Source of the DNA: Candidatus Bipolaricaulota bacterium
Lineage (GTDB): Bacteria > Bipolaricaulota > Bipolaricaulia > UBA7950 > UBA9294
Assembly: GCA_028278555.1 (NCBI GenBank)
Contig: JANQEA010000035.1
Coordinates: forward strand, 152,089 to 216,088
Length of the DNA stretch: 64,000 bases
Reading direction: 5' to 3'
Positions 6,240 through 25,789 of this stretch are shown in pieces (within the stretch, counting starts at the first letter, position 1; every line of letters begins with the position of its first letter). Made by a program: the position numbers and the translations under genes. Under the pieces are notes generated by a model. It did not search any database. It saw only the letters and a program-made list of their open reading frames with translations, and was not told the DNA's origin.

Positions 6240-7112
6240 GTGTCCGGTTCGAGGGGGTTCGCCATCCGATCGGTCTTCGCTGCAGCGCTCGTGCTGTTGG
6301 CTGTCTCGCTCTTGATCTTCGCCGACGAGCCAGACGCTGAGGCGCTCCTCGCCAAGGCCGACGCGGCCTACGATCGGTGGAGCGAACCGTTCGACTTCGC
6401 CGTCTACGAGATCGCCCTCCGCGAGGCGATCGACCTGTGGGAAGAGGCTCTTCCGCTACTGCCCGACGAGGAGCCGGCAACGCGGATCCGCGTTCTCAAT
6501 CGCCTAGCGCAGGCGTTGTTCGAACTCGCGACGGCGTACCAACCCGAGCCGCGCGATCGAGAGGCGACCTTCGAGCGTGCCCGGGACTTCGGCCTGCAAG
6601 CGCTCGAGCTCGATCCTGCATTCGTCGCGACGCGCGAGGCGGACGGCTTCCGCGCTGCCCTTCGCGCGGCGACCGACGTGAAGACGATCTTCTGGTACGG
6701 GAACACGCTCGGTTCGTGGCTCGACTTCCACCGAATGAAGGCGATCTTCGGCGGCGTTCGTGACGTCGGTGCAGCGTTCGAGCGGTCGATTGAGATCGAC
6801 GAGACCTACGATGGCGGCGGGCCGCACCGAGCGATGGGCATCTTCATCGCCCAGGCCCACTTCCTCGTCGGGAAGAGCCGCGCCGATTCGGTCGTCCACT
6901 TCGAACGGTCGATCGAAATCGATCCGACCTACCTCGAGAACTACGTGAACTACGCCGAGTACTACGCACGAGGGACCGACGACGAGCTGTTCGATCGGCT
7001 GATCGAGACCGTGCTCGCAGCGGCCGAGGATCCGGCGATCGTCGGCGCCCATCCGCTCTACAACCACCTCGCGATCGAACGGGCGCGCGGACTCGCCGCC
7101 AACCGGAAGTAG
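6240..7112 (+). CDS. Secreted TPR-like helical-repeat protein, hypothetical
   Basis: Start inferred at GTG 6240 because it gives a signal peptide (SGSRGFAIRSVFAAALVLLAVSLLIFA). The ORF track frame 5280..7112 is mostly antisense to the aminotransferase. The product is helical and repeat-rich. Confidence 0.5.
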   Translation: MSGSRGFAIRSVFAAALVLLAVSLLIFADEPDAEALLAKADAAYDRWSEPFDFAVYEIALREAIDLWEEALPLLPDEEPATRIRVLNRLAQALFELATAYQPEPRDREATFERARDFGLQALELDPAFVATREADGFRAALRAATDVKTIFWYGNTLGSWLDFHRMKAIFGGVRDVGAAFERSIEIDETYDGGGPHRAMGIFIAQAHFLVGKSRADSVVHFERSIEIDPTYLENYVNYAEYYARGTDDELFDRLIETVLAAAEDPAIVGAHPLYNHLAIERARGLAANRK

Positions 7113-7138
7113 GGCGACCTCGAGCGGAGTCCGCCCGC

Positions 7139-7831
7139 CTATTCAACGCGCCCGAGACGGGTGACGGCTTCGTAGGCGACCATGTAGCTCGCCGCGTGCA
7201 GCGGGCCGAGGAAGAGCGTCCCACTGAGCAGGATGAACAGCTCGATCGCCCAGGGCGGGATGACCGGGGCTTCCGCAATCGCGGAGAGCCCGAAGACGAT
7301 CCCCAGGACGATCGTCGGGAGGATCAGCAACAGGCTGATCCCGAAGAGTGTCCCGCGGTAGCCGGAGGTCAACTCCTTGCTCCGACGCATCGCCTCCCGT
7401 GCCCGGACAGGTGGGCCATGGGGGTTCTGCACCTCCCGATCGAGGACGACGATCGGCGCCCATGAGAACATGAGCGCGAAGACAATCGCCGGGATGACGA
7501 GCAGAACGAACCCGCCAGCGATCGCCAGGATCGTCAGAGTCTGGACGCCGGCGATCGGCGCCCAGTGCCTGAACCCCCGGAAGAGATCACGGAAGGTCGC
7601 GGGCTCGTTGCGCACGGTCTGCAGCGCGAGGAAGTACTGTCCGGCGTAGAGCGGCGCAAGCAGGACGACGTACAGCACCAGATCGAGCCAGACCCACAGA
7701 CCCGAGTCGGGGAGCACGAGGTCGATCGCCTGCTGCACTGCGAGAATGACCAGCCACGCGCCGAGGAGAAGCGGCAGCCGTCGGACGATCACGTCGACAC
7801 CCTCCCGAAGGCAAGACCACACGGAAATCAT
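7139..7831 (-). CDS. Polytopic membrane protein, hypothetical
   Basis: Has about 6 hydrophobic helices. Start chosen at the ATG (MISVWSCL) preceded by an AGGGGGGAT ribosome-binding site. The track ORF 7139..7891 is longer. Confidence 0.5.
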   Translation of the reverse strand: MISVWSCLREGVDVIVRRLPLLLGAWLVILAVQQAIDLVLPDSGLWVWLDLVLYVVLLAPLYAGQYFLALQTVRNEPATFRDLFRGFRHWAPIAGVQTLTILAIAGGFVLLVIPAIVFALMFSWAPIVVLDREVQNPHGPPVRAREAMRRSKELTSGYRGTLFGISLLLILPTIVLGIVFGLSAIAEAPVIPPWAIELFILLSGTLFLGPLHAASYMVAYEAVTRLGRVE

Positions 7832-19269: not shown

Positions 19270-20910
19270 CTAGAGTTCGAGCGCCTGCCGCATCAGGCGC
19301 GGCGGGAGCGATCCTTGCGAGAGGAGGGTGTCGTGCATCTCGCGGAGGCTCGCGTCCGGATGCGCCTTCTTGTAGTCATCGATCAGATCGAGGATCTGGA
19401 GCTTCCCCATCAGATACGACTGGGGCTGCGTCGGCGTCTGCGTGTACCGCCGAACCTCGGCCGTCGCGTTTGCCGGCTCGAGCTGAACCTTCTCGACCAT
19501 GAAGTCGACCGCTTCCTGAACGGTCATTCCGCGGGTGTGAAGCGACACGTCGAGGATGATCCGCGCGGCACGCCAGAGCTGATCGTGAAGGCGTCCCAGC
19601 CGCTGGATCGGCTTGGCGATCCAGCCGAGCTGCTCCATCAGCTCTTCGCAGTAGAAGGCCCATCCCTCGATGAACAGCGTCGCCAGGAACGATCCCATCC
19701 GCCGCGGAATCGTTTCGGCTCGGTTCGCCCAGACGAGCTGCAAGTGATGCCCCGGATACGCCTCGTGGAGAGCGACAACGGGGAGCTTCACGTGGAAGTG
19801 CCCCTTCAGCTTCGCCTCCTTCTCCTCGTCCGACGCATTCGGATCGACCGGGGTGACGACGAAAATCCCATCCTGCTGTTCTTCGAAGATCCCGGCGTTC
19901 TGGTAGGCGGCGTAGGGGATGAGCGGGCGGATGTAGACGGGGGTCTCGATGATCTTGAGCGACTCGTCCTCGGGGATCGTGACGATCTCGTGATCGATCA
20001 CGTATTGCTTCGCACTCTCCATCGCCTCTTCGTACGCCCGGAGGAGTCCTTCGGCCGTCGGATGATCGTTCTTCGCTTCCTCGAGGAGCTCCTCGACCGA
20101 CTTCGTCGGATCGATCTCCTTCGCGACCTCCTCCATCTGCTTCTTGGTCAGCTCGAACTGCTCCCAGCCGACCTCGATCAATCGGTCGGCGTCGTAGTCG
20201 ACCATGTGGTTCTCGCGGAGGATCTCGTCGAAGAGTTCCTTCCCTACGGCGTACTCGCCTTCGGCGTTCGGGAGGACCTCGTCCCGGATGAACGCGACAT
20301 ACGCCTCCACGGCCTTCGCCGCCTCGGCGCCGACGGCGGCGATTTCCTCGGCGAGGTCGGGGGCCGCCTGCTGCGCAAGACCCGGCAGAAGCGCGCTGAA
20401 GAGCATCGGCGCCATCTGACCCTGTTCGAGTGCCGTCTCCGCCCAGACCCGCGGGACTTCGCTCGGTATGAGGACCGCCTTCGCCTCCTCGAGGACTCTC
20501 GGCACTTGGCGCGTCCGCTCGAGGGCCAGCTTCAACCGTTCGGGGAGCGGAGCGAAGTCCTTCATGAGAAGGAGGATCACGCTCCCGGTGGTCGCATCCA
20601 GGTATTGACCCGGGTTCCGGAACTGACCGCGCTGCTTCTCGTAGCCGCGGACGAAGCCTTTGAAGATCTGCGTCATCAGCGTGTGATCGACGACGGCATC
20701 GTTCGGCCAACCCGTTGTCTCCATCGCGCCCAGCTCGGTTAGGATCTCATGAATCTCTCCGTTCTGTGCATCCTGAGCCGCGCGTGTGAAATCGCCGAGT
20801 CGATCGTCGAAGCGATGATCTCCGAGTTGCGTCGCCGCGATCGGATTCAGCTCCATCAGCCGTTCGATCCAGGCGTCGGAGCGGTCGTAGAAGTGCTTCG
20901 GGTCCGTCAC
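19270..20910 (-). CDS. DUF885 family protein (metallopeptidase-like)
   Basis: Has the HEAYPGHHLQ motif characteristic of DUF885 and is 546 aa. Confidence 0.8.
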   Translation of the reverse strand: MTDPKHFYDRSDAWIERLMELNPIAATQLGDHRFDDRLGDFTRAAQDAQNGEIHEILTELGAMETTGWPNDAVVDHTLMTQIFKGFVRGYEKQRGQFRNPGQYLDATTGSVILLLMKDFAPLPERLKLALERTRQVPRVLEEAKAVLIPSEVPRVWAETALEQGQMAPMLFSALLPGLAQQAAPDLAEEIAAVGAEAAKAVEAYVAFIRDEVLPNAEGEYAVGKELFDEILRENHMVDYDADRLIEVGWEQFELTKKQMEEVAKEIDPTKSVEELLEEAKNDHPTAEGLLRAYEEAMESAKQYVIDHEIVTIPEDESLKIIETPVYIRPLIPYAAYQNAGIFEEQQDGIFVVTPVDPNASDEEKEAKLKGHFHVKLPVVALHEAYPGHHLQLVWANRAETIPRRMGSFLATLFIEGWAFYCEELMEQLGWIAKPIQRLGRLHDQLWRAARIILDVSLHTRGMTVQEAVDFMVEKVQLEPANATAEVRRYTQTPTQPQSYLMGKLQILDLIDDYKKAHPDASLREMHDTLLSQGSLPPRLMRQALEL

Positions 20911-20975
20911 GTCCCAACCTCCTTCTGATTCCTCATTTACATCTGTTTGTCGCAGCTCCGAAGCGTTCGGTTCAG

Positions 20976-21533
20976 CTAGACCTGATAACCGCTGATCTCA
21001 TCCTCCGTCGCCTCGACCCCGAGCCCGAGAACGATCCGGTTGACGAAGTTGAAGTAGGCGACAATCAGGGCGATTGAGAGGATGTCTTCATCGGAGAAGC
21101 CCGCTGTGCGGAGGGACTCGATGTCCTCCTCGATGACGTTCTCCGGGGTCTCGGTCAGCTTCTGCGCGTACTCGAGCGCGACCGTCATTTTCGGGCCGAC
21201 GTCGACCGCCTCGCGATCCTCGACGAAGCGGGCGAGACGTTCCGGATCGCGCCAGTAGTGTCCGAGCGCTTCGGCGTGATGGCGGATGCAATACGGACAG
21301 CGATTCGACGTCGAGACGACGACGGCGATCATCTCGCGCTCCTCGCGGGAGAGGTCGGACCGCGAGAACATCGTCGCCAGGTAGAGATCCATGTGCGCCG
21401 TCATCGCCTCCGGCCGAAGGCTGTGGACGGCCATGATGTTCGACAGCTTCCCGCGCTTCCCCTTGACCCTCTCGAACGCAGCGCGTAGTTCGTCGTCCGC
21501 CTCGTCTTCACCGATCACGCGGATCCAGGCCAT
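20976..21533 (-). CDS. Carboxymuconolactone decarboxylase/AhpD-like peroxidase-related family protein
   Basis: Has a CMD-domain CxxxH-like region (NRCPYCIRHH). A GAGGAGG ribosome-binding site precedes the ATG (MAWIRV) at 21533. Confidence 0.7.
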   Translation of the reverse strand: MAWIRVIGEDEADDELRAAFERVKGKRGKLSNIMAVHSLRPEAMTAHMDLYLATMFSRSDLSREEREMIAVVVSTSNRCPYCIRHHAEALGHYWRDPERLARFVEDREAVDVGPKMTVALEYAQKLTETPENVIEEDIESLRTAGFSDEDILSIALIVAYFNFVNRIVLGLGVEATEDEISGYQV

Positions 21534-21622
21534 CGATGCCTCCTCAGTCTGGCAGAATGGTCCGATCATATCCCGCCTCTTAGTGCGCATCAGCCGCTAT
21601 CGATCTCGCTCGCTCGATAGCC

Positions 21623-21650
21623 TTGACAATCGAATTCCGGAGCGTATACT
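21623..21650 (+). promoter_or_regulatory. Near-consensus sigma70 promoter (TTGACA-16 nt-TATACT)
   Basis: The -35 box TTGACA is at 21623-21628 and the -10 box TATACT at 21645-21650. It lies upstream of the membrane-protein/regulator operon. Confidence 0.6.
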
Positions 21651-21654
21651 GCAG

Positions 21655-21677
21655 AGTACTTTGCGCTGCAAAGTACT
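21655..21677 (+). promoter_or_regulatory. Perfect 23-bp palindromic operator AGTACTTTGC-GCT-GCAAAGTACT overlapping the transcription start
   Basis: Perfect 10-bp inverted repeats separated by 3 bp, immediately downstream of the -10 element. This is the typical position of a repressor operator. Confidence 0.55.
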
Positions 21678-21692
21678 TGACGGGAGAGAACT

Positions 21693-22352
21693 ATGAACCA
21701 ACTGAGTCTTCGAAACATCGAGCGCAAGAGCTGGCAAAGCACGATGGGCGGCGGGGTGATCGAGATCATGTTCGGGATCATGATGTTCGCCGGCGCGACG
21801 TCGTATCTCGTCTCCGATCTCGGCGCGCCATCCGCTGCGAGCACCGCTACGTTGATCGCCCTTCACGCCGTGGCGCTTCTATTGATGCTTTGGCTGCGGA
21901 AGCGATACGTCCTTCCGCGGGTCGGGCGGGCCGCCTTCTCGGCGAACCGAAAGCGGCGTCTCCATCGCATGCGGATCCTTCTGGGGATTTGCGTCGCGGT
22001 GACGGTCGCGCTCGTCGTGCTGACGGTCCTCGCAACGCGGACCGGGACCTCTCTCCTCGGGCCCGTTTCGGCCGCTCCCGTGGTTGCCGTCGTTGCCGTG
22101 ATCGTTCTCGTGCCGCTCGGCGCGCTCGCGATCTTCCTCGACTACCCTCGATTCCTCCTTCTTGGCGGATTGGTCGTCGGGGCGGAGGCGATCCTCGCGC
22201 TGCTCGACAAGTACGGTTCGCCGCCGTTCGACCGGACACTCGTCTTCGGCTCGATCGGCCTGATCAGTCTGATCCTCGGGTTGGTCATCTTCGCTCGCTT
22301 CCTCCGCCGCGTACCACGACCCGAACACGAGGTGATCGATCATGCCGGCTAG
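21693..22352 (+). CDS. Polytopic membrane protein, paralog A
   Basis: A GGGAGAG ribosome-binding site sits upstream. It has about 6 TM helices and a conserved VLPRVGRAAFSANRKRR loop. Confidence 0.6.
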   Translation: MNQLSLRNIERKSWQSTMGGGVIEIMFGIMMFAGATSYLVSDLGAPSAASTATLIALHAVALLLMLWLRKRYVLPRVGRAAFSANRKRRLHRMRILLGICVAVTVALVVLTVLATRTGTSLLGPVSAAPVVAVVAVIVLVPLGALAIFLDYPRFLLLGGLVVGAEAILALLDKYGSPPFDRTLVFGSIGLISLILGLVIFARFLRRVPRPEHEVIDHAG

Positions 22353-22971
22353 TCCGGGATTGAGGGAACTCGAGCGGCGCGTCTGGCTGCGGACATTCGA
22401 ACACGGGCTCTGGGACGTCGCCATCGGCCTGCTGTTACTGGCGTTCGGGATCGGCATCCTGACGGAGTTCTACTGGCTCTCCGCCATCATCGTTCCGGTC
22501 AGCCTGCCTGCGATGCGAGACCTTGCCCGACGGGCGATTGTCCCGAGGATCGGGCACGCGACGTTCCGCGGGCGGCGAAAGAGGAGCCTTGTTCACGTTC
22601 AGCTGATCCTGACCGGCCTCGCCGTCGCCGGTGCCGGGATGTTCGCGTTCACGAGCTTCGCGTCACGGGGGACGGCGCCCGACTGGATGCTCTGGATACG
22701 GTCTCACTTCATCGTCGTCATCGGGCTGATCTGGGGCGGGGCACTCGGCGTCGCCGGGTGGACCGTCGATTTTCCCCGTCTCTACGCGTACGGCGCGATC
22801 CTCTTCGGAGCTCTGCTCGCCGTCGACCTCATCCCATCCGGCTACCACCTTGCCCACGCGCTGATCGCCGTCGGCGGACTGATCGCGCTCGTCGGGGCCG
22901 CGCTGTTCATCCGCTTCACCCGTCGGTATCCGCGTCACCCCAAACCGCTCGAAGGAGCGGCCGATGACTGA
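22342..22971 (+). CDS. Polytopic membrane protein, paralog B
   Basis: Overlaps paralog A by 11 nt. Shares the loop motif IVPRIGHATFRGRRKRS and a DFPRLYAYG segment with paralog A. Confidence 0.6.
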   Translation: MPASPGLRELERRVWLRTFEHGLWDVAIGLLLLAFGIGILTEFYWLSAIIVPVSLPAMRDLARRAIVPRIGHATFRGRRKRSLVHVQLILTGLAVAGAGMFAFTSFASRGTAPDWMLWIRSHFIVVIGLIWGGALGVAGWTVDFPRLYAYGAILFGALLAVDLIPSGYHLAHALIAVGGLIALVGAALFIRFTRRYPRHPKPLEGAADD

Positions 22972-23284
22972 GGCGGAGCGCGACGATGCCCGCGGCCTGC
23001 AGATCGACCGCGCGATTCACGAGCCAGCACGCCTGCTGATCACCGCCCACCTCTACGTCGTCGAATCGGCCGACTACGTGTTCCTGATGGGGAACACCGG
23101 CCTGACATGGGGAAACCTCTCGTCGCACCTCTCCAAATTGGAGGCCACCGGCTACGTCGAGATCACCAAGGAGTTCGTCGAGAAGAAACCGCACACGATG
23201 GTCAAGCTGACGGAAGAAGGCCGGACGGCGTTCGACACCTATCGCCGCCAGATGAAGGCCCTGTTCGAGGATCTCCCGGACTGA
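22964..23284 (+). CDS. Winged-helix (HTH_34/ArsR-like) transcriptional regulator
   Basis: A 106-aa product with an HTH wing (GNTGLTWGNLSSHLSKLEATGYVEITKEF). It overlaps the upstream gene by 8 nt. Confidence 0.65.
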   Translation: MTEAERDDARGLQIDRAIHEPARLLITAHLYVVESADYVFLMGNTGLTWGNLSSHLSKLEATGYVEITKEFVEKKPHTMVKLTEEGRTAFDTYRRQMKALFEDLPD

Positions 23285-23316
23285 CAAGCGCAACCACCCG
23301 ATGGAGGAGGTGACCT

Positions 23317-23400
23317 ATGGAAGGAACCACGTGGATCCTGATCGGCCTCGGCGTTCTCGCCGTGATCGGCGCGATTATCCTCCTGTCACAGGCGAAGTAG
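23317..23400 (+). CDS. Predicted 27-aa single-TM micropeptide (MEGTTWILIGLGVLAVIGAIILLSQAK)
   Basis: A GGAGGAGG ribosome-binding site sits 5-8 nt upstream of the ATG. The product is one hydrophobic helix and is followed by a hairpin. It is not in the ORF track because it is under 60 aa. Confidence 0.3.
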   Translation: MEGTTWILIGLGVLAVIGAIILLSQAK

Positions 23401-23412
23401 AACATCTGGTCC

Positions 23413-23450
23413 GCCCGGTCGTTCTTCTTACGGCCGGGCATCTGTTTCCT
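23413..23450 (+). terminator. Hairpin after the micropeptide ORF (putative operon terminator)
   Basis: GCCCGGUC/GGCCGGGC forms an 8-bp stem with one G-U pair and an 11-nt loop, followed by AUCUGUUUCC. Confidence 0.35.
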
Positions 23451-23729
23451 CGACCGGATCGGCAATCCGAGATCGACGGCCAGGCTTCCGGACAGAAGGA
23501 CGGCGTCGATCACCCGGCTGAAGCTACCGGAACGTAAGCTTCACGGAACCGAGGTCGACTCGGACTCTCCAGCCTGTAGCCCCTATCGTGATGTACACAA
23601 CGACGTTCATGTCCCTCCTTGCACATCCAAGCGGTTCTCAGGACTGGCTCGTGAAGGTCGCATGCCGATTGCAGTGTAAGACCCAACCCTAATTCCGCGT
23701 AGCTCGTCTGTTCACATGAATGCTCAGAT

Positions 23730-23759
23730 TTGACATTCACAGAACTTCCATGATATACG
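23730..23759 (+). promoter_or_regulatory. Putative promoter of the glycine-rich protein gene (TTGACA -35, extended -10 TGaTATACG)
   Basis: Lies in an AT-rich region (about 40% GC). The spacer is 18 nt and a TG motif precedes the -10 hexamer. Confidence 0.4.
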
Positions 23760-23791
23760 GTCCCTGATTTCGACTATGGGAGATGGTTCAA

Positions 23792-25789
23792 ATGTCGAAA
23801 CTCGGGAAACGCATCTGCGTTGTGTGCGCGATCATCCTTGTGGCAGCTGTTGCTATGACCTGCGTTGCGCAGGAGTACGGAAAGGATAACCCACAAGCGT
23901 GGGGCGGATACCCTGAGGGATACAAGTTTGGTGCTGATGGAACCCAGCCGGATCATCCTGACGGATACGACGGCTGGCCAGCAGACCATCCCAACAATCC
24001 CAACAAGGGCTACGCCGGCAAAGGCGGCAAGGGCGCGGACGCGACTAAAGAAGGCCACGCAGCTGGGAATGGAGGGAAGGGTGGTGCTGGACCAAAGAAT
24101 GATGATGGCCCCCTTAATTCCTGGAACGGCGGCAAAGGCGGAGCCGGCGGAGGCAGCTCAGTTCCGGGAATACGCGGTGGAAATGGCGGCAAAGGCGGCG
24201 ATTCCACACACGGAGCCGGAGGCGATGGCGGCAATGGCGGCGATGGCGGCGAGGACGATGTGACGGTGAAGCACTCCGCCGGCGGTAACGGCGGCAAAGG
24301 CGGAGACAGCGTCAACGGTAACGGCGGCAAGGGCGGAGACGCTGGGAAGGGTAGCGACAGTGCGCCCGGCGGAAACGGCGGCGACGGAGGCACCAGCATT
24401 CATAAGACAGGAGGAGCGGGGGGTGACGGCGGCGACGGCGGCAGCAATGGCGAGGGTGGCAACGGAGGAAGTGGCGGTCACACGAGACATGGGACGGGCG
24501 GACCGGGCGGCAATGGCGGAAACGGCGGCGCGAGCAAGATTCCAGGACAGAAGGGAAAGACGGGAGGTGAGGGCGGCGATGGCGGCAATGGGTATGTCGG
24601 CGGTCCCTGCGACAAGGTAGGTAACGGGGCCGGAGGCAAGGGCGGACAAGGCGGGCAAGGCGGCGCGGGTTACTCTGGCGACGATGAGAACGACGCAACG
24701 GGCGGCGGGGATGGTGGGAAAGGCGGGGCCGGAGGAAATGCCGGAGACGGGGAAGATGCATCCGCGGGCAATGGCGGGGATGGTGGGAAAGGCGGCACAG
24801 CGAACAAGAAACCTGCAATTGGGGGCACTGGCGGGAAGGGTGGCAAGGGCGGCCGCTCTGGGCTCGGCAACAAAGGCGGCACTGGCGGAAAGGGTGGACC
24901 AGGAGGAGATGGACCAGACAAGCATGGCGGAGAAGGCGGGGCTCCTGGTGAAGGCGGAGACTATTCCCCATCTGGCCCCATGAAGCCTGGCAAAGGAGGC
25001 ATGGGTGGCAGCGGCGGAAAGGGAAGCCCCGAAAAAAAGGATCGAAGTCGTGAGAGAGGTGCCTCCGGCTCTTGTGTGAGATACGTCTGCCTTCCCTTCT
25101 CAGGTTTCGGATGGGAACGGGCTTGGACCTCGGACACTGATCGGGCCGAGTGTGTTGGCTTGGGCCTTTGCTGCGTCGGCCTAGATGTGGGCGTCGAAGT
25201 CGTGACAGTCGACCATGCCGGAATGCTGTCCGACATCATAGATCTCACACCACTGCTAGGCTGGTGGAGCAGCGAGTCGTACTCCCCGATGATCGGCGTG
25301 GCCATCACTGCGCTTCTCCCGGAATGCGGAACCGGGCTACCTCTTGTCGACATAGCCTATGGCTCGGCCAGCATCCCTGTGAGTGGTCACGCCGAGTGGA
25401 TCCTCGAAGATTCCGATTATGGACTCGCGGAGATCCAGGGCATCCTTGGCATAACCCGTGCGTCCTTGGGATTCGGGATGCGCATCGGTGCACTCTGCGA
25501 ATGCCCTGTGCTGACACCGTACGTCGACCTCAAAGCGGGAATCGCACAGTCGTGGTTAGAGTTCGAGGATGTCCAATCCGGGATGGATTCGGTAGATCTG
25601 CGGACACTGCTAGAAACTAACACAAGTGCTATCACACAGTACTACGTGCAAGCTTCCATGGGAGCCTCGTTCTCACTCGGTCCACAGCTTGACCTTCGTC
25701 TTGTCGGGACTGGAAGGATCTCGGGGGGAGCGGATCAATCAACCCATTTCGAGTTCGGGGGAAGTCTGTCACTGGGGCTCCGCTTCTAG
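23792..25789 (+). CDS. Secreted glycine-rich GGxGGxGG (PGRS-like) repeat protein with a C-terminal beta-barrel (autotransporter-like) domain
   Basis: Has a Sec signal peptide (MSKLGKRICVVCAIILVAAVAMTCVAQE). About 17 repeats of GG[NDTK]GG[KDNS]GG span residues about 75-410. The last 230 aa or so show alternating-hydrophobic beta-strands and end in LSLGLRF with a terminal Phe. Codon usage is atypical for the genome. Start is taken at the second ATG, 23792, which has the better ribosome-binding-site spacing. Confidence 0.65.
   Translation: MSKLGKRICVVCAIILVAAVAMTCVAQEYGKDNPQAWGGYPEGYKFGADGTQPDHPDGYDGWPADHPNNPNKGYAGKGGKGADATKEGHAAGNGGKGGAGPKNDDGPLNSWNGGKGGAGGGSSVPGIRGGNGGKGGDSTHGAGGDGGNGGDGGEDDVTVKHSAGGNGGKGGDSVNGNGGKGGDAGKGSDSAPGGNGGDGGTSIHKTGGAGGDGGDGGSNGEGGNGGSGGHTRHGTGGPGGNGGNGGASKIPGQKGKTGGEGGDGGNGYVGGPCDKVGNGAGGKGGQGGQGGAGYSGDDENDATGGGDGGKGGAGGNAGDGEDASAGNGGDGGKGGTANKKPAIGGTGGKGGKGGRSGLGNKGGTGGKGGPGGDGPDKHGGEGGAPGEGGDYSPSGPMKPGKGGMGGSGGKGSPEKKDRSRERGASGSCVRYVCLPFSGFGWERAWTSDTDRAECVGLGLCCVGLDVGVEVVTVDHAGMLSDIIDLTPLLGWWSSESYSPMIGVAITALLPECGTGLPLVDIAYGSASIPVSGHAEWILEDSDYGLAEIQGILGITRASLGFGMRIGALCECPVLTPYVDLKAGIAQSWLEFEDVQSGMDSVDLRTLLETNTSAITQYYVQASMGASFSLGPQLDLRLVGTGRISGGADQSTHFEFGGSLSLGLRF
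24000..25030 (+). repeat. Imperfect tandem DNA repeats (about 27-33 bp units, ggcggcaaaggcggngac-like) encoding the Gly-rich repeats
   Basis: GGCGGCAAAGGCGG and AATGGCGGCGA(T/C)GGCGG units recur through this interval. Confidence 0.6.

Follow-up and report, generated by a model that had tools for sequence, protein, structure and literature searches.

A nameless family of predicted six-helix membrane proteins encoded with a minimal winged-helix regulator and its candidate operator in Bacteria and Archaea

Results

We describe an operon from a 64,000-nucleotide stretch of the genome of a Candidatus Bipolaricaulota bacterium (GenBank assembly GCA_028278555.1, contig JANQEA010000035.1, positions 152,089 to 216,088; the whole stretch is called the window here), in which two paralogous membrane proteins, A and B, are encoded ahead of a small winged-helix regulator, R, and a micropeptide, S. 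The operon is best read as self-contained and autoregulated, in the order promoter, operator, A, B, R, S, terminator. Its membrane proteins belong to a large family that carries no name, the pairing of the family's genes with R-type genes is near-obligate in both directions, and R likely acts at its own promoter through a palindrome that recurs in archaeal loci. With slightly less than even confidence, we take the whole for an autoregulated module resembling SdpI/SdpR, in which the membrane proteins control R.

The three larger genes all lie on the + strand: A, the regulator-distal paralogue, at 21693-22352 (219 aa); B, the regulator-proximal paralogue, at 22342-22971 (209 aa); and R, a member of Pfam HTH_34 and a predicted autorepressor, at 22964-23284 (106 aa). 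A sequence-only reading of this DNA had reported three overlapping genes at 21693-23284, and we reproduce both its coordinates and its overlaps of 11 nt between A and B and 8 nt between B and R. The tight translational coupling that it proposed is borne out by these overlaps, by the Shine-Dalgarno-like sequences AGGTGA and AGGAG that stand 6 nt 5' of the start codons of B and R, respectively, and by the related locus L001, which has an A-B-R cassette with identical 11- and 8-nt overlaps though its B is only 49% identical.

A large membrane protein family

A and B align end to end in BLASTP at 28% identity (E 5e-14) and are therefore paralogues; the sequence-only reading had already called them duplicates on the strength of two shared motifs. 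Both motifs (VLPRVGRAAFSANRKR / IVPRIGHATFRGRRKR and DYPRFLLLG / DFPRLYAYG) are present and fall on columns that are nearly invariant family-wide, namely P68, R69, G71, F75, R79, and R146 (membrane-protein residues are given in B numbering). An exhaustive profile search returned 2,791 representatives of 50%-identity clusters at E <=1e-3 and 1,626 at E <=1e-10, and most of the 150 best matches listed are 190-230 aa long and match over their full length. For B we found about 100 orthologues; A has 21 close orthologues, all without names, and itself fits the family profile with every cytoplasmic motif retained. Source names are nearly all "hypothetical protein," with two JGI entries bearing other automatic names. 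The named bacterial sources are Bipolaricaulota, Zixiibacteriota, Acidobacteriota, Gemmatimonadota, Neomarinimicrobiota, and Anaerolineae, and the named archaeal ones are Bathyarchaeota and the Asgard archaeon Promethearchaeum syntrophicum (gene DSAG12_03700). To go by the names of its close homologues, the window most resembles Bipolaricaulota-type metagenome-assembled genomes, of which some bear the label "uncultured Thermotogae."

Neither A nor B matches any family above threshold in Pfam, NCBIfam, PADLOC, or PHROGs, and the family has no relative among solved structures, in agreement with the earlier statement that no described family could be recognized. Across 46 family members (A, B, and 44 diverse relatives), no common Pfam or NCBIfam family emerged, only scattered sub-threshold matches, each confined to one member. 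We found no sequence or fold match of A or B to a described transporter, holin, or channel family, the weak match to a holin family staying below its cutoff (18.4 bits vs. 28.4), and the library scans gave no sign of the known transporter family that the sequence-only reading had named as evidence against itself. To judge by these comparisons, the family is large and nameless, and the copies of Pfam and NCBIfam that were searched have no model for it.

A and B are each predicted to have six transmembrane (TM) helices with both termini inside the cell. Lysine plus arginine residues average 17.2 per family member in segments predicted to lie inside and 1.6 in those outside, an asymmetry that argues for this N-in, C-in, 6-TM topology, and the AF2 model of B is an all-helical bundle (pLDDT 77.7). 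An internal repeat of 3+3 TM helices, as proposed for SdpI, was considered and rejected, as the conserved PR motifs do not lie where a simple duplication would put them.

Conservation, profiled over 148 distinct family members, is concentrated on the cytoplasmic side. To the strongly conserved residues the N-terminal helix contributes L7 and E11, the cytoplasmic end of TM1 D21, G22, D25, and G29, the TM2-TM3 loop P68, R69, G71, F75, and R79, the TM4-TM5 turn R146, and the C-terminal tail R191, F192, R194, and P197; G185 is a further one. Information averages 2.20 bits for cytoplasmic positions, 1.71 for those in the membrane, and 0.94 for those outside; within the TM helices, the inner-leaflet halves reach 1.95 bits and the outer halves 1.46, and of 21 positions with at least 3 bits, 15 are cytoplasmic and none is outside. 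Such a pattern would be expected if an unchanging cytoplasmic surface faced an unchanging partner and the rest of the protein, in the membrane and outside, diversified; it is not the one expected of a transporter whose substrate site in the membrane core is conserved. The sequence-only reading had left the choice between sensor and transporter open; conservation of the cytoplasmic face favors a role as regulator partner or sensor.

Gene linkage, copy number, and fusions

Family genes and R-type genes are paired almost without exception, whichever of the two is taken as the point of departure. From the membrane-protein side, an HTH_34 gene lies directly 3' of every family gene inspected, usually overlapping it (seven individual loci and nine genome loci, the latter obtained with the membrane-protein alignment A3). 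Starting from R, we scanned metagenomes with the regulator alignment A4, which gave 529 confirmed stretches, and retained the 80 best loci; a family gene lies directly upstream on the same strand in 76 of the 77 loci with enough upstream sequence, and the lone exception holds a C-terminal remnant of a family gene.

The number of membrane genes per regulator varies. Arrangements inspected include a single copy with R (as in Promethearchaeum), a fused tandem protein of 419 aa with R, two copies with R in a metagenome-assembled genome (MAG) of Bathyarchaeota, and three copies with R in Anaerolineales. Among the metagenome loci, one complete copy precedes R in 31 and two in 22, with three found occasionally; three tandem family genes stand before one R in L011 (2644-4940), L007 (856-3167), and L078 (1865-4282). 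A second natural tandem fusion is 404 aa long, and the fusions inspected are followed by an HTH_34 gene. In L003, a second, more divergent membrane-protein and HTH_34 pair (6255-7170, - strand) shares a contig with the first, so genomes can carry several modules.

In multi-copy loci, the best match of the proximal copy elsewhere is another proximal copy and that of the distal copy is another distal or a single copy, never its own neighbor, which indicates that the A/B split is old and positionally stable. Assembly of A and B as a hetero-oligomer is thus probable, in view of the natural fusions and this positional orthology. The earlier description of a heterodimer-like pair stands to that extent, and fails insofar as it implies an obligatory pair, since copy number runs from one to three. 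An AF2 model of the natural fusion P0128, made for the A-B interface, was set aside: its second half reached a pLDDT of only ~50 because the single-domain sequences had all aligned to the first half.

The regulator and its predicted operator

The Pfam HTH_34 profile (PF13601) gives R a score of 85 bits (cutoff 27; E 4e-24) over 79 of its 80 positions at most, from 2 to 79, in keeping with its first description as a winged-helix regulator. R stays below the cutoffs for the ArsR family (HTH_5, 16.2 bits vs. a cutoff of 22; NF033788, 20.3 vs. 55) and for PadR (PF03551, 17.8 vs. 27), the latter a sub-threshold match to another winged-helix family, and in PADLOC it matches weakly, at E 9e-6 or worse, the winged helix-turn-helix (wHTH) domain of Csa3/CARF regulators. 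Among solved structures the closest is PH1061 of Pyrococcus horikoshii (PDB 1ub9; profile E 3e-11), a MarR/ArsR-like wHTH protein of the same minimal size and of low identity to R, whose function and partner are uncharacterized in the PDB record. R has no cysteine and no extra domain; two of its four histidines, H19 and H55, are invariant in the nine-sequence alignment A4, and we read them as framework or recognition-helix positions. Within the phylum R is 73-91% identical, and with relatives in other phyla and in archaea it shares 63-68% identity. R is far better conserved than its membrane partner, at a median pairwise identity of 63% vs. 26% over 65 distinct loci, and loci picked from the membrane-protein side show the same disparity (63-68% for R, 26-31% for the membrane protein). 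An orphan second copy of R, 87% identical, occurs in L015 (1097-1393) with no membrane gene or operator 5' of it, on a contig whose main cassette has a truncated B gene.

Upstream of A, a sigma-70-like promoter (TTGACA-16 nt-TATACT, 21623-21650, + strand) agrees with the consensus at 11 of 12 positions and is the sole such site within 20900-23900. Four nucleotides past its -10 box begins a perfect 10-3-10 inverted repeat, AGTACTTTGC-GCT-GCAAAGTACT (21655-21677), with arms that are 100% complementary; its core, ACTTTG-N5-CAAAGT, occupies 21658-21674, ~7 nt past the -10 box. Allowing up to two mismatches, this core is matched once in the 64-kb window (shuffled expectation 0.25). A conserved operator at the operon's promoter, with no other such site in the window, supports the dedicated repressor of the sequence-only reading.

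Again at <=2 mismatches, 59 of the 62 distinct upstream regions hold the same core at a distance of 32-88 nt from the first membrane gene, and in the other three a site lies further upstream once the first gene is correctly placed; for comparison, all 531 kb of related loci examined hold 78 core matches. A promoter of the form TTGACN-N15-19-TANNNT precedes the palindrome in 41 of 57 related upstream regions, the gap from the end of the -10 box being 7 nt in 25 loci and 11 nt in 8. No such promoter was found in 11 regions, the Bathyarchaeota locus included, where the palindrome abuts an A/T-rich, TATA-like hexamer; in the Bathyarchaeota locus a second, inverted pair of half-sites lies beyond the TATA-like element, with the start codon close behind. 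The core extends to the Bathyarchaeota, Chloroflexota, Thermomicrobium, and Promethearchaeum loci, and in two of these loci one and the same base change has altered the two half-sites, giving AGTTTG...CAAACT for the Chloroflexota plasmid and ACTTTA...TAAAGT for Promethearchaeum.

From this pattern it would appear that R dimers bind the palindrome and repress, presumably by occluding the transcription start in bacteria or the TATA/BRE elements in archaea; the archaeal promoter reading rests on one labeled Bathyarchaeota MAG, Promethearchaeum, and sequence patterns. Autoregulation through the palindrome is likely, and of the functional claims made here it is one that we hold with good confidence.

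A relative of R in Thermomicrobium roseum DSM 5159 (43% identity) shows the regulator in other company. On the megaplasmid NC_011961 (L099 1957-4530, TRD_RS10025 to TRD_RS10010), a 188-aa polytopic protein is followed by this R-like HTH_34 protein and then by an ABC ATPase and permease, and the locus has a perfect ACTTTG-N5-CAAAGT operator, GGAGTACTTTGTATAACAAAGTACTCC. Comparison of the family profile with the 188-aa membrane partner by hhalign found no homology, so the regulator-operator pair has been reused with other membrane partners.

A micropeptide at the end of the operon

The ORF of S (23317-23400, + strand) starts 33 nt 3' of the R stop codon behind a strong Shine-Dalgarno sequence, GGAGGAGGTGA, and encodes 27 residues, MEGTTWILIGLGVLAVIGAIILLSQAK, with one TM helix. 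A homologue of 23-29 aa lies 0-34 nt after R in 39 loci, whereas only 45 of 1,200 random control windows of 350 nt, drawn from these loci, contain a comparable ORF. The 15 distinct versions of 27 codons show 708, 473, and 1,268 differences at first, second, and third codon positions, respectively; the dominance of third-position differences indicates that the ORF is under coding selection. Conserved, coding-selected, and 3' of R, S is thus the fourth gene of an A-B-R-S operon, which the sequence-only reading had described without S and without the promoter and its palindrome. Pfam offers no match for S, and its carriers are essentially Bipolaricaulota-type loci, none having been detected in other phyla. 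A terminator-like hairpin at 23413-23439 (+ strand; element to 23449), with a 10-bp stem, eight G-C pairs, and a weak T tail, probably marks the operon end; it is a consensus match only, with 1.7 such sites expected in shuffled sequence.

Regulatory membrane micropeptides are known from MgrB-PhoQ, AcrZ-AcrB, and KdpF-KdpABC. Like them, S is a small single-TM peptide co-transcribed with larger membrane proteins, and it probably joins or modulates the membrane complex; the likeness is one of analogy, as no homology was found, and S differs from MgrB, AcrZ, and KdpF in being restricted to Bipolaricaulota-type loci.

Genomic neighborhood

Divergent from the operon, at 20976-21590 (- strand), lies a gene for a peroxidase-related enzyme of the AhpD/carboxymuconolactone decarboxylase (CMD) type (TIGR01926, 155 bits; PF02627 also matches), which we regard as context only and whose true start is probably the internal methionine at residue 20 (MAWIRV). 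Its synteny extends to only part of the phylum; it is shared by L001, L002, L008, L012, L016, and ~14 metagenome loci, and many others lack the gene. Between the divergent genes, at 21596-21621 and just 5' of the -35 box, is a further inverted repeat, GCTATCGA-N10-TCGATAGC, which might serve the CMD/AhpD-like gene or another regulator.

Clustering of neighbors revealed synteny at the phylum level only (opp-type ABC, CMD, and a few unknowns, among many shadow ORFs). Across phyla it gave no recurrent partner besides the membrane protein and R, toxin genes not having been searched for specifically. An association with ABC exporters, suggested by two loci, proved not to be general. In Bipolaricaulota-type genomes the module sits in stable chromosomal synteny beside the same opp-type ABC and CMD genes, which argues for vertical inheritance; one copy is on a non-mobilizable Chloroflexota plasmid.

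In Promethearchaeum syntrophicum (CP042905.2, L097, 3448394-3455047), DSAG12_03700 and its HTH_34 gene adjoin genes for ESCRT-II (EAP30/Vps25-like) and Vps4, an adjacency that we read as coincidental. Further along the window, a 668-aa ORF (23783-25789, + strand) has a Gly-rich N-terminal two-thirds with GGxGG-type repeats, a nonrepetitive C-terminal part, and no Pfam match; positions 24000-25000 show strong positive GC and AT skew.

Discussion

Comparison with known systems

SdpI of Bacillus subtilis, a 6-TM immunity and signaling protein, sequesters the ArsR-type autorepressor that its own operon encodes when it meets the SdpC toxin (PMC2910880). The module described here shares with SdpI/SdpR a self-contained operon in which a 6-TM protein of ~200 aa is co-transcribed with a wHTH regulator of ~100 aa, here a predicted autorepressor, as well as topological and copy-number variants that include 12-TM forms (PMC2910880), and in both a repressor-contact motif is proposed on the cytoplasmic side. 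It differs in several respects: the SdpI/YhfL model (PF13630) matches neither A nor B at E <=1 and none of the 46 family members at E <=0.01; R belongs to HTH_34 and not to ArsR proper; the gene order is reversed relative to sdpRI; no adjacent secreted-toxin operon was noted, toxin genes not having been searched for specifically; and the module occurs mainly in uncultured phyla and archaea, its R binding being something that we infer. As the sequence tests of the membrane proteins for SdpI, for HAAS, DUF1700, and DUF1129, and for transporters and holins were all negative, we regard the module as SdpI/SdpR-like in its presumed working and not as a member of that family.

A second point of reference is the HAAS-PadR-like wHTH dyads, proposed as alternatives to two-component systems, in which the HAAS domain, three cytoplasmic helices with a GxP kink, lies on the N-terminal side of the TM segments (PMC11237479). 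Both there and here a standalone small wHTH protein accompanies a membrane-linked helical partner, and comparative genomics predicts that a membrane signal is passed by releasing or reconfiguring the transcription factor. A and B, however, have only ~20 cytoplasmic N-terminal residues, and the models for HAAS (PF22564), DUF1700, and DUF1129 match neither A, B, nor 44 relatives; moreover, the wHTH of the dyads is PadR-like, with its gene first in one example seen, whereas R is HTH_34. In BlaR1/BlaI and MecR1/MecI, a membrane sensor-protease controls a small wHTH autorepressor from the same locus. BlaR1 has an extracellular penicillin-binding domain and a repressor-cleaving zinc-protease domain; the module has no such domains or motifs.

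Proposed mechanism and alternatives

If the module works in this manner, R would bind ACTTTG-N5-CAAAGT as a minimal winged-helix dimer and block transcription of its own operon, while A and B, as parallel 6-TM paralogues, would assemble into a hetero-oligomer, replaced in other genomes by a homo-oligomer, three paralogues, or a fused 12-TM chain. Their cytoplasmic face, composed of the N-terminal LRxIERxxW helix, the PRxG...F...R loop, the DxPR turn, and the C-terminal RFxRxYP tail, would capture or release R upon a membrane event and thereby set the amount of free R, such that expression of the operon would follow the signal. Direct control of R by A and B is plausible, a judgment that we place just short of an even chance. 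The fast divergence of the membrane part and its expansion to one to three copies fit a protein that meets variable membrane-active agents.

Several points weigh against this mechanism. Contact of R with the membrane proteins is inferred; no homology of A or B to SdpI or to HAAS could be detected, and their genes come first, the reverse of the sdpRI order. The outer loops are tiny, and a cognate extracellular ligand is not evident. Regulators of the R type are not tied to the A/B family alone, as Thermomicrobium shows. The comparison of conservation between R and its partner is biased in the 80 metagenome loci, these having been selected by similarity to R. Finally, an operator that serves only its own operon could mean that A and B are a mere regulated output, with R sensing a ligand alone.

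This last point leads to an inducible effector of the TetR/TetA or ArsR/ArsB kind, which we consider rather unlikely: R would sense a small ligand or metal, and A, B, and S would form the output, as an exporter, a channel, or a membrane-protective complex, with no input to R. Small ArsR- and PadR-type wHTH proteins can bind ligands at the dimer interface, and a self-contained operon whose sole operator in 64 kb is its own suits such a scheme, as do the 6+6 TM pairs and fused 12-TM forms, which resemble small transporters. The Thermomicrobium locus, with its perfect operator, unrelated membrane protein, and ABC ATPase and permease, points the same way, together with a fused member that is divergent from an ABC-2 exporter. 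Yet such ABC neighbors are not general, no transporter family or fold was matched, and conserved polar residues are missing from the membrane core and outer face, conservation lying instead in the cytoplasmic loops and tails. R, moreover, is devoid of cysteine and of any extra domain, and we read its invariant H19 and H55 as framework or recognition-helix positions.

The same cytoplasmic conservation would serve equally well an improbable homeostat, in which newly made A and B always bind R stoichiometrically and free R reports a shortfall or excess of inserted membrane protein, as a feedback on insertion or proteostasis. Translational coupling places R last, from which it would follow that R is made in a fixed ratio at a membrane-tethered mRNA. 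The present data do not separate this scheme from a signal-responsive one, but it does not account for how fast the membrane part has diverged or for its expansion in copy number. Least probable of all, and in our estimate very improbable, is a selfish or defensive module of the toxin-antitoxin or abortive-infection type, with the membrane protein(s) as membrane-damaging toxin and R as antitoxin and autorepressor. A compact, overlapping, palindrome-autoregulated cassette, found in many phyla of both domains among neighbors that differ between phyla and in one case on a plasmid, has the look of one, and the sub-threshold holin match could be counted in its favor. It is disfavored by the lack of PADLOC or PHROGs matches for A and B, by the absence of the module from 2.9 million viral contigs, by the stable chromosomal synteny within the phylum, and by R itself, a bare wHTH without a toxin-neutralizing domain; one to three copies of a 200-aa 6-TM protein would also be atypical of toxins.

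Returning to the SdpI/SdpR-like reading, a broader form of it, which we advance as doubtful, is that these modules represent a third, very simple kind of one-step membrane-to-DNA signaling in Bacteria and Archaea, Asgard archaea included. Fast-evolving 6-TM sensors, in one to three copies or fused, would directly gate a nearly invariant repressor; an operator common to both domains would be placed for a sigma-70 or a TATA/BRE promoter; and a micropeptide would act as an extra modulator in one phylum.

Significance

In the searchable literature on HTH_34, PF13601, and membrane-sequestered wHTH autorepressors, we found no description of this module. What is known already is the combination of a polytopic membrane protein with a minimal wHTH autorepressor, a little-studied alternative to two-component signaling of which SdpI/SdpR is the sole mechanistically dissected case that we found; what is new is the membrane family, the operator common to both domains, and the micropeptide. 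The nameless family adds at least 2,791 clusters at 50% identity, with most members from uncultured phyla, and S is a further case of the small genes overlooked by annotation.

Candidate hosts exist in public records: Promethearchaeum syntrophicum (DSAG12_03700), which we take to be in culture; Chloroflexota strain ZRK35, whose record gives a single cell as its source; and, for the regulator and operator only, Thermomicrobium roseum DSM 5159. Conservation of one repressor-operator pair across the bacteria-archaea divide, where it is redeployed on two different transcription machineries, makes for a ready-made, testable system, with an operator of 23 bp, a repressor of 106 aa, and from one to three partners in the membrane. 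The module could therefore be well suited to asking how membrane events reach DNA without phosphorylation.

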